A stretch of DNA of 17,150 nucleotides from an uncultured archaeon. GTDB taxonomy: Archaea; Asgardarchaeota; Heimdallarchaeia; Heimdallarchaeales; Heimdallarchaeaceae. The stretch is from the NCBI GenBank assembly GCA_964534625.1, contig CAZHRF010000053.1, forward strand, positions 1-17,150, written 5' to 3'. A program made the position numbers and the translations under genes. Below are positions 1 to 11,557 of this stretch, piece by piece. The notes beneath the pieces were generated by a model. The model was not told the DNA's origin, ran no database searches, and saw nothing but the letters and a program-made list of their open reading frames with translations. Within the stretch, counting starts at the first letter, position 1; each line of letters starts with the position of its first letter.

Positions 1-34
1 TTCAGATAAATATTTATATTATTATCAATATAAT

Positions 35-226
35 ATGTCCCAAATGAATGATTTAATAGAATGTGGAGATTTTGAAATATATCTTGAAAATGATTGGTGG
101 ATTATCCGTCATAAAGAAACAGGTGAAGAACTAGGGAAGTTTTTAACTAAAGATGATGCTCTTGATAAAGCGTCTTCGTTTCTACAAGATGACGATGAAA
201 GGGAAGAATATGAATCAGTCTGTTAA
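35..226 (+). CDS. Small acidic 63-aa protein; candidate substrate/partner of the adjacent radical SAM enzyme; central part resembles a DUF2188-like small domain
   Basis: ATG at 35 preceded by TATA-like TTTATA at 13-18. Stop overlaps the probable rSAM start (ATG 210) by 17 nt. WWIIRHKETGEELGKFLTKDDALDKA resembles the W-x-V...F-x-T-K-x-[DE]-A pattern. D/E-rich tail ends in Cys. Confidence 0.75.
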   Translation: MSQMNDLIECGDFEIYLENDWWIIRHKETGEELGKFLTKDDALDKASSFLQDDDEREEYESVC

Positions 227-1652
227 AAAGGATCTTGATGCATTCTTTTTTACATATAAAAATCACCAGTTCTTACTAGACCCACTCACTCAATTTTTTT
301 GGAAACTCCAAGACAAAAATTTATCTTTGATTTTTTACTCAAAAAATAATTTTTCACTAGACTATCTATCTCAAACCTCGTCTTGTACATCAATCAAAAA
401 GACACTTTCGGATATGCATTCTCTATCAAGAAGAGGATATTTTGTTCAAAAACGAAATCATCCAAAAGGAAAAAGGGAAAGGAAAAGAGTTAGAAATATT
501 CAATATATCATCATCAATCCAACTCATGATTGCAATCTTGATTGTTGGTATTGTTATGCATCTAAATTAAGAGAAAAAGAAAAAAACTCTGTTGAACCTT
601 CATTTAAATTTATTAAGAAGACTATTGATTACTTTCTTAATCGTCATTCACAAAAGTCCAGTTCTGAACCTTTTGGGATTAATCTCTTTTATACTAGTGA
701 GATTACTTTACACTTTAAGCTTTTTCAAGAAACCCTTGATTATTTATCACAGGTAAAAACTAATTACCCATTCCCAATTTATCTCTTTCCTCCTTCTACA
801 AACTTTTTAGAGCCATCGCCTGCATTCGTTAATTATATCAATAATTATGGTCACCTTATAGTTTCATTAGATTATTCAAATAAGAAACAGATTGAAACTG
901 CCTTACAAAATTTGAACAAGATACAAGAAAATACAACTAAGCAAGTGATCATACCATATCATCCAGATAAAGGGACTTTTCATGATATATATGCAGACAT
1001 GAAGGAATACTTCGATATAATATCCATTCGCCCAGCAAGACTTGGTTTAGATATGACAAAAAAGTGGGATATAACTTCAATCCACGATTTTCAACAGGAC
1101 TTATCTTCATTGATTTCTTATATAACAGAACTAAATGACCACGACTTATTCTTTTTTCTAAGTTCTTTAGGACCCTCAGACTATCTCTCTCGTTTTCTTA
1201 ATAGAGTTATTACCAGAACTAAAATTAATAATAGATGTCCAGCAGCTATTAAGGCAATAACAATTGATCCTAATGGGGAGTTTTATCCCTGCTCAGGTTT
1301 GATAGGTCAAAAGAAATATTGTTTAGGTTCAATTAATCAAGGTTTTGTCCTTAAATCTAATTCACTTAACACATTTTCAAAATTTGTTGATCAAAATGAG
1401 AATTGTGAGAAATGTCCAATAAAATATTTTTGTGGAGGGCATTGCATTGAATGGGGTGAACGAATCAAACCTTCCGTTTCTTATTCTGAATGTACAATTA
1501 ATTTGGAATATATCAAAGCATGTATATATTTAGCTTATCATCTTAAAACTCATAGAACATCGGTCTTTAATGAATATCTTAAAGAAAAAAAAATAAAAAA
1601 TAGGCTAAATTATCCTCTTTATTTTGAGGATTTTTCAACCATATTTAGGTAA
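210..1652 (+). CDS. Radical SAM / SPASM domain protein with probable N-terminal RRE (PqqD-like) domain
   Basis: CxxxCxxC motif CNLDCWYC. SPASM motifs CPAA...IDPNGEFYPC, CEKCPIKYFCGGHC (Cx2Cx5Cx3C) and a distal Cys. N-terminal FTYKNHQFLLDPLTQFFWKL...LSRRGYF is RRE-like. Start moved from 153 to the in-frame ATG at 210 to avoid a long overlap. Confidence 0.9.
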   Translation: MNQSVKKDLDAFFFTYKNHQFLLDPLTQFFWKLQDKNLSLIFYSKNNFSLDYLSQTSSCTSIKKTLSDMHSLSRRGYFVQKRNHPKGKRERKRVRNIQYIIINPTHDCNLDCWYCYASKLREKEKNSVEPSFKFIKKTIDYFLNRHSQKSSSEPFGINLFYTSEITLHFKLFQETLDYLSQVKTNYPFPIYLFPPSTNFLEPSPAFVNYINNYGHLIVSLDYSNKKQIETALQNLNKIQENTTKQVIIPYHPDKGTFHDIYADMKEYFDIISIRPARLGLDMTKKWDITSIHDFQQDLSSLISYITELNDHDLFFFLSSLGPSDYLSRFLNRVITRTKINNRCPAAIKAITIDPNGEFYPCSGLIGQKKYCLGSINQGFVLKSNSLNTFSKFVDQNENCEKCPIKYFCGGHCIEWGERIKPSVSYSECTINLEYIKACIYLAYHLKTHRTSVFNEYLKEKKIKNRLNYPLYFEDFSTIFR

Positions 1653-2037
1653 GAAAACCAAACAATATTGGAACTCCTCGATCTATAAACTCTATATTCA
1701 CATTAAAAAGATGAAGTAAAACAATTAATAGCCAACATAAAGCCAACCATAAGGTTATTGTAGCTACTGATGCCCACACAGCTTTTTTTGTTGTGACATC
1801 CCCAGCCATGTCCCATAACATGAAACAGATTAAAAAGGCTACTATTCCCAGCATTGCTCTTTCAGCAAAAGGTAGAAGGTTAAATACCCATAAAAAGGAT
1901 ATTGCCACAGCCATAATTAGATTGAGCCAACTCCACTTTTTGACTTCACTGGAAAACATTGCAGCGCTAATAATTGCAGCAGCCAGATAAAAGAGTCCTG
2001 TCAAAATTGCCAATAAAATGATTGTCTCGAGTGCCAT
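1645..2037 (-). CDS. Hypothetical 4-TM membrane protein
   Basis: 130-aa ORF with four hydrophobic segments. Convergent with the rSAM gene (8-nt overlap). Confidence 0.8.
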   Translation of the reverse strand: MALETIILLAILTGLFYLAAAIISAAMFSSEVKKWSWLNLIMAVAISFLWVFNLLPFAERAMLGIVAFLICFMLWDMAGDVTTKKAVWASVATITLWLALCWLLIVLLHLFNVNIEFIDRGVPILFGFLT

Positions 2038-10987: not shown

Positions 10988-11557
10988 CTAAAGTTCTTCT
11001 TCATAATAGTCACGTTTATGATAGCATCCCAAAAAGATGTTAAAACGAGGAACGGTCTCTTTGTATTTGCGAAAAGGATACCCATGTAATTCTTCTAAAT
11101 AAATGTCTTTTTCAACAGATGATAATATAAAACATATCAAAGCCATAAGTGCAAATAAATTAGATAATATACTATGATTGATAAGTATAAGTGCAATACA
11201 ATTTAAGATCAATCCAAGAGTTACTGGATGTCTAACATAGGCATAAATTCGTAAATTACGGAATTTTGTCAATTCTTTTATTCCTCTTTGATTAATCCAT
11301 CGTTTTCTTTCCCACAAAAAACCTGCCAAAATAAGAGAAAACGCAATTAATCCAGTATAAAGGCCAAATTGAACCATTAACGGGGGAGCATCATATTCAC
11401 CTATATTATAGAATGCAATGCTTAAAATCATCAATAGAAAAGCTATATTCTGAAAAATTTTATATCTTATGCCTTTATATGTATTAAATATAAGCCAAAT
11501 TATTAGATAGATACCAAGAACGATCAATACCACCCAAAACCAAATCGAATCAATCAC
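10988..11557 (-). CDS. Isoprenylcysteine carboxyl methyltransferase (ICMT/PEMT, Ste14-like) family membrane protein
   Basis: Multi-TM protein with IYAYVRHPVTLG and LEELHGYPFRKYKETVPRF motifs. GTG start. Confidence 0.85.
   Translation of the reverse strand: MIDSIWFWVVLIVLGIYLIIWLIFNTYKGIRYKIFQNIAFLLMILSIAFYNIGEYDAPPLMVQFGLYTGLIAFSLILAGFLWERKRWINQRGIKELTKFRNLRIYAYVRHPVTLGLILNCIALILINHSILSNLFALMALICFILSSVEKDIYLEELHGYPFRKYKETVPRFNIFLGCYHKRDYYEEEL

Follow-up and report, generated by a model that had tools for sequence, protein, structure and literature searches.

Radical S-adenosylmethionine (SAM) enzymes with a SPASM domain are known mostly as maturases of bacterial peptide natural products. In Clostridia, the SCIFF peptide and its maturase CteB form a lineage-wide two-gene cassette that lacks a protease or exporter and whose function is unknown. 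According to the CteB structure paper, a SPASM pattern of seven rather than eight cysteines reportedly leaves an open site on auxiliary cluster I, which is filled by a substrate cysteine; the auxiliary clusters of anSME are fully ligated. In the mycofactocin pathway, MftC acts on the last residues of MftA, which is encoded just upstream and ends in G-V-Y, and the C-terminal position of the target is essential. Some radical SAM/SPASM enzymes have stand-alone helpers, such as PqqD or MftB, encoded next to them. Cases in which a whole intracellular protein is modified are few (QhpC and, recently, CrpA). The radical SAM/SPASM enzyme QhpD installs Cys-Glu and Cys-Asp thioethers in the small protein QhpC, which is kept in the cell, whereas CrpC of Methanococcus voltae, an RRE/radical SAM/SPASM enzyme, modifies the protein CrpA, whose N-terminal folded domain aids binding (PMC13692751). 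Both systems offer a precedent for protein, not peptide, substrates (PMC13692751). Here we describe a two-gene locus at the start of contig CAZHRF010000053.1 from an uncultured Heimdallarchaeaceae archaeon (17,150 bp; the whole contig is hereafter called the window), in which the gene for a small protein with a C-terminal cysteine overlaps the gene for a radical SAM/SPASM enzyme.

The first-pass annotation, which had been made from the letters of this DNA alone, proposed that the pair is an uncharacterized peptide or small-protein modification system, and at the genomic level both the pairing and its distribution support this proposal. It had also suggested examining homologues for a conserved upstream small open reading frame (ORF). 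Using tblastn, we found the small ORF directly 5′ of the enzyme gene in 28 of the 28 loci that have upstream DNA, always with a tight junction that ranges from a 17 nt overlap to a gap of ~7 nt. Such pairing is far beyond chance.

The distribution of the two genes was examined in 400 genomes of the phylum, comprising 30 other members of the window's own family and 370 genomes outside it. The enzyme is present in 27 of the 30 family genomes and the small protein, as judged by a profile search, in 28, each always in single copy, and both are absent from all 370 others. In the lone genome that carries the small protein but not the enzyme, the gene is cut by the end of a contig, and the two family genomes without either gene have completeness values of 82% and 76%. 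When 5.8 billion proteins were searched with the small-protein profile, 78 clusters were returned, all with E <1e-19 and nothing weaker. A full HMMER scan of 1.84 billion representatives recovered three family representatives together with five extra matches that we regard as spurious: these are long and match in multiple stretches, and of three compared with Pfam, two proved to be FG-GAP repeat proteins and the third belongs to no family. The small ORF was thus not found without the enzyme, and enzyme homologues with upstream DNA were never found without the small ORF; a widespread occurrence of the small ORF on its own, which the first-pass annotation had raised as a contrary outcome, did not appear.

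Close relatives of the enzyme number only 14 in the same 5.8 billion proteins (33-38% identity). Those with a named source are labeled Heimdallarchaeaceae or Heimdallarchaeota, in agreement with the Asgard archaeal origin that had been suspected, and the next tier consists of bacterial SCIFF maturases at 19-25% identity. A literature search (DUF2188 with radical SAM; Asgard RiPPs, peptides synthesized by ribosomes and modified post-translationally) yielded nothing on the small-protein family or its link to a radical SAM enzyme. To judge from these comparisons, the locus probably encodes a protein-modification pair that acts inside the cell and is specific to the window's family, and represents a new family and a new type of substrate within the known RRE/radical SAM/SPASM maturase class. 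The pair is near-universal and vertically kept in a single family within the Heimdall group of Asgard archaea, a group that counts among the nearest archaeal relatives of eukaryotes known so far. It gives a marker specific to this family and may offer a way into the physiology of the Heimdallarchaeaceae. The features of the locus are:

12..18 (+), TATA box ATTTATA, putative promoter element of the two-gene operon; follows an A-rich stretch resembling a B recognition element, motif kept in nearly all loci
44..226 (+), probable small-protein gene, 60 residues, upstream of the enzyme gene in 28/28 loci; a start at ATG 35 would give 63 residues
191..223 (+), codons of the disordered acidic tail, the proposed modification site; residues 53-63 in ATG-35 numbering, with E58-x-E60-S61-V62-C63-stop
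210..1652 (+), RRE/radical SAM/SPASM enzyme gene, 480 residues, from family-model, PDB-profile and fold matches; translationally coupled to the small gene
210..494 (+), N-terminal RRE-like domain, residues 1-95 of the enzyme, predicted from AlphaFold2 topology and profile alignment to the CteB N-terminal region
531..554 (+), CxxxCxxC motif (C108, C112, C115) for the radical SAM [4Fe-4S] cluster, read from the sequence
1236..1493 (+), SPASM domain with seven invariant cysteines; Pfam SPASM and TIGR04085 above their cut-offs

The small ORF had been placed at 35-226 (63 residues), overlapping by 17 nt a long ORF at 210-1652 (480 residues from a conserved ATG at 210; stop codon at 1650-1652). The two ORFs and their overlap are borne out, but the true small gene is probably 44-226 (60 residues), because all 25 aligned homologues (58-68 residues) begin at the column of ATG 44 and the spacing from the TATA box fits this start. 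Specifically, the distance from ATTTATA is 25 nt to ATG 44 and only 16 nt to ATG 35, and a purine-rich run with ATTTATA or ATTTAAA is found ~25-30 nt 5′ of the ATG in nearly all 28 loci. The TATA-like box noted earlier is therefore conserved, although it suits the downstream rather than the upstream ATG. On the basis of archaeal promoter architecture, this element is the putative promoter of the operon, and the small gene is most likely read from a near-leaderless transcript. Differences between homologues of the small gene fall mostly in third codon positions (0.26, 0.20 and 0.49 per position), which indicates a coding sequence under purifying selection. Residues of the small protein are numbered below from ATG 35 (63 residues).

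In the alignment of 25 homologues, C10, G11, Y16, W22, G34, F36, A42, Q51, E58, S61 and C63 are invariant, and W21 and E60 are conserved in at least 90%. Several of the residues singled out in the first-pass annotation (C10, Y16, W21, W22 and C63) are accordingly among the conserved ones, whereas H26 and the tyrosine of the terminal YESVC are not. The C-terminal consensus is E-x-[E/G]-S-[V/T]-C-stop. A stop codon immediately follows the cysteine in all 28 sequences, cysteine is also the last residue in the 78 database clusters, and length variation is limited to the acidic linker of the tail. Only the small protein ends in an acidic S-[VT]-C among the proteins of this genome; one further ORF ends in SVC, and it is hydrophobic and resembles a chance ORF.

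The AlphaFold2 model of the small protein (predicted local distance difference test score, or pLDDT, of 78) has four strands (residues 7-36) and a helix (39-52) followed by an unstructured acidic tail, with pLDDT <50 for residues 54-60. Foldseek gave no PDB match to this model at E ≤0.001, and the top rows were uninformative β-propeller blades. The folded core weakly resembles DUF2188 (PF09954). Six of 26 family members match this Pfam model at E ≤10 (best E 0.0049, all under the Pfam cut-off), and the window's own small protein gave no DUF2188 match. In addition, the best atlas look-alike is a DUF2188 cluster (score 0.85), and UniRef names one database member of the family DUF2188. Relative to DUF2188, the invariant Cys-Gly in the N-terminal part, the acidic tail and the cysteine at the end are additions specific to this family. 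Conservation is higher in the small protein than in its enzyme (40-61% versus 30-38% identity in the same genomes). A folded small substrate that outconserves its enzyme would be unusual, as would a likely target that is a single cysteine fixed at the C-terminus.

These features bear on whether the small protein is a substrate at all. It might instead be an accessory factor, such as a chaperone, a cluster or electron donor or a regulator, or it might be linked to the enzyme by operon history only. Helpers such as PqqD and MftB furnish a parallel for the first case, and the two invariant cysteines could bind metal; adjacency by itself is weak evidence of a substrate, since synteny is generally conserved in the family. 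However, the enzyme already has an RRE-like domain of its own, and four strands plus one helix do not make an RRE fold. No other candidate substrate is conserved nearby, the upstream gene clusters c2-c5 have no tblastn match in this genome, and a disordered tail with an invariant end motif is a typical substrate feature. We therefore regard a role other than substrate as quite unlikely.

A second alternative is that the locus is a classic RiPP system, in which the folded part serves as a cleaved leader and the modified C-terminal peptide is exported as a bioactive natural product. The enzyme has the RRE/radical SAM/SPASM architecture of RiPP maturases, the substrate has a layout like that of a leader plus core, and both a dedicated enzyme and an adjacent small gene product are present. 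The first-pass annotation saw no protease or ABC exporter in the window, and there is likewise no protease or transporter in the conserved neighborhood of 17 loci. Moreover, the pair occurs in single copy in ~28 of 30 family genomes with conserved synteny, unlike sporadic biosynthetic clusters, the supposed leader is a folded part that shows higher conservation than the enzyme, no signal peptide was found on the small protein, and the candidate core would comprise only about six residues. A secreted product thus seems very unlikely. The folded and conserved substrate, the single copy, the family-wide occurrence and the lack of a protease or exporter argue instead for an intracellular protein, and by analogy the genomic pattern resembles SCIFF, QhpC or CrpA most closely. 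The earlier term 'RiPP-like' consequently fits the enzymology, but the biology is probably that of an intracellular modified protein rather than of a secreted natural product.

The enzyme belongs to the radical SAM superfamily and to its SPASM subfamily, as the cysteine motifs reported earlier had indicated. Members of the superfamily bind the SAM-cleaving [4Fe-4S] cluster through CxxxCxxC in a partial TIM-barrel, and the fold matches of the enzyme to CteB and anSME are strong. Among 15 homologues, C112 and C115 of the C108-x3-C112-x2-C115 motif do not vary and C108 is kept in at least 90%, and C343, C361, C399, C402, C408, C412 and C428 are all invariant. The spacing of the latter set (C343...G355-x4...C361, C399-x2-C402-x5-C408-x3-C412, C428) corresponds to the seven-cysteine SPASM motif for two auxiliary clusters, Cx9-15Gx4C...Cx2Cx5Cx3C...C. 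The SPASM models PF13186 (23.5 against a cut-off of 21.5) and TIGR04085 (47.5 against 27) both recognize the enzyme. Its score with the Pfam Radical_SAM model is 20.2, under the cut-off of 29.5, and homologues carry precomputed PF04055 assignments.

The best NCBIfam matches include the thioether-forming maturases PapB (NF047865, 82.2 bits over residues 102-414, cut-off 340), SCIFF (TIGR03974, 73.4 bits, cut-off 425) and QhpD (TIGR03906, 61.5 bits, cut-off 453). An uncharacterized nif11-type model and an ScfB-like orphan model score alongside these at 73 bits each. The equivalog cut-offs of the top models all lie four- to twelve-fold above the score of the enzyme. Lower scores were obtained with anSME (29.5 bits) and TIGR04463 (24.6 bits), and MftC-type models were not among the top matches. 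When the PDB was searched with the enzyme-family profile, CteB (5WGG, E 1.1e-22) aligned from the N-terminal domain through the SPASM region, with all seven SPASM cysteines of the enzyme matched to CteB cysteines. The AlphaFold2 model of the enzyme (pLDDT 77, predicted template modeling score 0.82) was likewise matched by Foldseek to CteB, with a TM score of 0.66-0.73 over ~460 columns, followed by TigE and anSME. The nearest solved relative of the enzyme is therefore CteB, the SCIFF thioether maturase.

Despite these similarities, the pair differs from each of the described systems. CteB/SCIFF (Clostridia; PDB 5WGG/5WHY; TIGR03974) is the best match in sequence and fold over the full length and shares the seven-cysteine SPASM pattern. 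The likeness extends to a lineage-wide two-gene cassette of unknown function that lacks a protease or exporter. Nevertheless, enzyme identity is only ~17-24%, the host is archaeal, and SCIFF is a 45-residue peptide with six cysteines, in contrast to the folded 60-residue protein seen here with two cysteines, one of them strictly C-terminal. The TIGR03974 score (73 bits) is well below 425, and there is no adjacent ~45-residue peptide with six cysteines, which places the enzyme outside the SCIFF maturases. PapB, the freyrasin maturase that acts on PapA, is the top NCBIfam match, and its acceptors are Asp or Glu residues near the cysteine; the tail here is rich in glutamate. However, PapB is without the N-terminal domain seen here, and PapA carries C-x3-D repeats in which the cysteine is N-terminal to the acceptor. 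The small protein has a single terminal cysteine with acidic residues on its N-terminal side and no C-x3-D/E after either cysteine. Without such repeats, and with a score under the NF047865 cut-off, the pair does not belong to the PapB-family ranthipeptide systems.

QhpD/QhpC, where QhpC is the small subunit of quinohemoprotein amine dehydrogenase, resembles the proposed pair, in which the substrate would likewise be a small intracellular protein. The substrates are unrelated, however, the TIGR03906 score is 61 bits versus 453, and no dehydrogenase subunits, QhpG or exporter are encoded nearby. In place of a qhpA/C/G context, the neighbors are a Ras GTPase, a membrane protein, a DUF123 protein and a tetratricopeptide repeat (TPR) protein, and hence the enzyme is not a QhpD. 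The TIGR04463 model, which represents CrpC, gives only 24.6 bits, and CrpA is large, cysteine-rich and repetitive compared with a protein of 60 residues and two cysteines. Finally, in contrast to MftC/MftA, partners corresponding to MftB, D, E or F are missing from the locus, the small protein ends in cysteine rather than tyrosine, and MftC is outside the best model matches.

The N-terminal region of the enzyme had been described as RRE-like. An RRE is a leader-binding winged helix-turn-helix at the N-terminus, with a three-stranded sheet followed by three helices. The AlphaFold2 model is consistent with this topology in that strands are predicted at residues 12-16, 19-24 and 29-33 and helices at 39-45, 50-56 and 60-74, with pLDDT of only 44-69 for residues 31-60 and 81-90. 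The last of these helices aligns to the N-terminal region of CteB in the profile search. This part of the enzyme is thus likely homologous to the CteB N-terminal domain, a similarity that stops short of demonstrating leader binding.

The strict co-occurrence of the two genes, their translational coupling, the invariant terminal motif on a disordered tail and the class of the enzyme all suggest that the small protein is the substrate. This assignment is also consistent with the nearest relatives of the enzyme, all of which act on adjacently encoded peptides or proteins. By analogy, we infer that the tail is the site of modification and that the product is a cysteine thioether. A thioether between C63 and a tail residue is preferred because the closest characterized relatives form cysteine thioethers, often to Asp or Glu. 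We hold this reading, in which the modified protein also stays inside the cell, with moderate confidence.

According to the proposed mechanism, a translationally coupled two-gene operon would yield both a small protein of the cytoplasm and its modifying radical SAM/SPASM enzyme. The enzyme would be docked by the core of the small protein, by its N-terminal strand or by the two together, and the flexible acidic linker would present the terminal hexapeptide E-x-[E/G]-S-[V/T]-C-COOH at the active site. The seven-cysteine pattern, which the enzyme has in common with CteB, implies that auxiliary cluster I has an open iron, where the terminal cysteine thiolate could bind, by analogy with CteB, PapB and QhpD. 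The 5′-deoxyadenosyl radical would then take a hydrogen from a nearby tail residue, for which E58 is the best candidate and E60 and S61 are alternatives. Formation of the thioether (-2 Da) would close a small ring at the extreme C-terminus, and the modified protein, as the end product, would remain in the cell.

Co-folding, which had been proposed as a check, was carried out for the enzyme and the small protein with SAM and three clusters, and gave a score of 0.51 compared with 0.02 for the best control. The mark for a pass is reached by 58 of 80 solved complexes and by 2 of 110 mismatched pairs, and passes at scores ≤0.60 include only 7 of the 80 solved complexes plus both passing mismatches. 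Agreement between runs covers at least 82% of contacts, and the pLDDT of the partner is at least 70. The check was therefore passed, but weakly, and it lends weak support to a predicted complex between the two proteins.

Several observations weigh against a thioether-bearing substrate of this kind. The enzyme is far under every curated equivalog cut-off, and hence its reaction is not transferable by homology. The co-folding pass is weak. A Pfam search of the N-terminal 85-100 residues of the enzyme gave no PqqD/RRE model or other match at E ≤10, and the segment with helices 1 and 2 of the RRE-like domain is deleted in most homologues. In the PapB and CteB substrates the donor cysteine is N-terminal to the acceptor, whereas the acceptor here would be N-terminal to the cysteine. 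A plain thioether also leaves the strictly last position of the cysteine unexplained, and C10, the second invariant cysteine, has no role in the proposed scheme.

The reversed order of donor and acceptor, the position of the terminal cysteine and the presence of C10 leave room for other chemistry at the C-terminus. With the same substrate, the enzyme might act on the terminus itself and create a protein-borne reactive group or cofactor, either by an MftC-like oxidative decarboxylation of the cysteine, with or without cyclization onto the penultimate Val/Thr, or by an anSME-type oxidation of the cysteine. The strictly last position of the cysteine in the 28 loci and 78 database clusters, the resemblance of the S-[V/T]-C end to the G-V-Y end of MftA, and the presence of anSME among the fold matches are consistent with this possibility. 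It is less easily reconciled with the model searches, where MftC-type models lie outside the top NCBIfam matches and the anSME model scores only 29.5 bits, or with the neighborhood, where no peptidase, oxidase or glycosyltransferase partner is conserved. In addition, the enzyme has the seven-cysteine pattern, unlike anSME with its fully ligated clusters. Overall, we consider modification of the C-terminus itself unlikely. The same low probability applies to a reading in which a chemistry new for radical SAM/SPASM enzymes on a strictly C-terminal cysteine (for example, decarboxylative or carboxylate-dependent cross-linking) would convert the folded 60-residue protein into a reactive group or cofactor borne on the protein, for use in core processes of Heimdallarchaeaceae physiology. 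If the small protein is the substrate, the pair would add either a thioether topology with the acceptor N-terminal to a terminal cysteine or a new C-terminal reaction. The two-gene system is small enough for direct testing by co-expression and mass spectrometry.

Because the window is an entire contig (C53), with position 1 at a contig end, the pair sits at the edge of the assembled sequence. The assembly (3.37 Mb, 32% GC, 120 contigs) represents a 90%-complete genome. A second contig, C104 (4,367 nt), carries a GTPase orthologue at its start, and the reverse complement of its first bases ends in TTCAGAT, identical to the first seven bases of the window (a 7 nt end overlap). C53 and C104 therefore probably abut, with the assembly break inside a divergent promoter region (window 1-34, C104:1-70). 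Their join would put a TAA in the frame of the small ORF, separated by one codon from the first full in-frame codon of the window. This stop codon and the divergent GTPase upstream indicate that the operon begins at the small gene with no upstream extension, contrary to the earlier suggestion that the locus may continue in that direction. Only four DNA sequencing runs, all from one microbial-mat study, contain the stretch and may be where this DNA came from, and no RNA run is listed. Public contigs of those runs show zero differences from the window, and in two of the runs they extend ~4.3 kb past position 1, which is compatible with the join given the length of C104.

Gene order around the pair is conserved in 17 relatives with 10-20 kb of context, but this wider synteny says little about function because gene order is generally kept among such closely related genomes. 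A gene for a Ras-family GTPase lies upstream on the opposite strand, and beyond it are genes for two proteins without a Pfam match, for a GNAT acetyltransferase and for a protein of the enolase superfamily. Downstream are a convergent gene for a small membrane protein, a second radical SAM gene (11 of 18 loci), and genes for a DUF123 protein, a TPR protein and an unknown protein. The GTPase (Pfam Ras, E 5.5e-38) is encoded at C104:71-595 in this genome and, for example, at L043:9109-9636 (-) in a relative. It diverges from the small gene across an intergenic region of ~100 nt in 14 of 17 relatives, and probably here too. We considered whether the GTPase could be a second substrate via a C-terminal cysteine, but none of 14 orthologues has one. 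For the upstream genes c2-c5, tblastn at E ≤1e-10 found no counterpart in any part of this 90%-complete genome. Two of them, c4 and c5 (L043:6470-8975 (-)), encode adjacent proteins of ~400-450 residues without a Pfam match, and are conserved between the GTPase and the GNAT/enolase-superfamily pair in 16 relatives.

The second radical SAM protein (cluster c15; L043:11847-12983 (+)) has 378 residues, Radical_SAM and Fer4_12 domains and a cysteine-rich N-terminus, but no SPASM domain. It was rejected as a partner of the pair since 7 of 18 loci, the window among them, lack it and tblastn found no copy in the 90%-complete genome. A gene at window 10988-11557 (-) was considered as an ICMT-like methyltransferase that might act on the C-terminal cysteine. 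At the sensitivity of the Pfam search this assignment is unsupported (only weak matches, to NnrU with E 2.7e-4 and to DUF2162), and the gene lies 10 kb from the pair and is unlinked to it. The convergent membrane protein (window 1645-2037 (-)) has 130 residues and no Pfam match. The 3′ end of its gene overlaps the enzyme gene by 8 nt, and the gene keeps its position in 14 of 18 loci.

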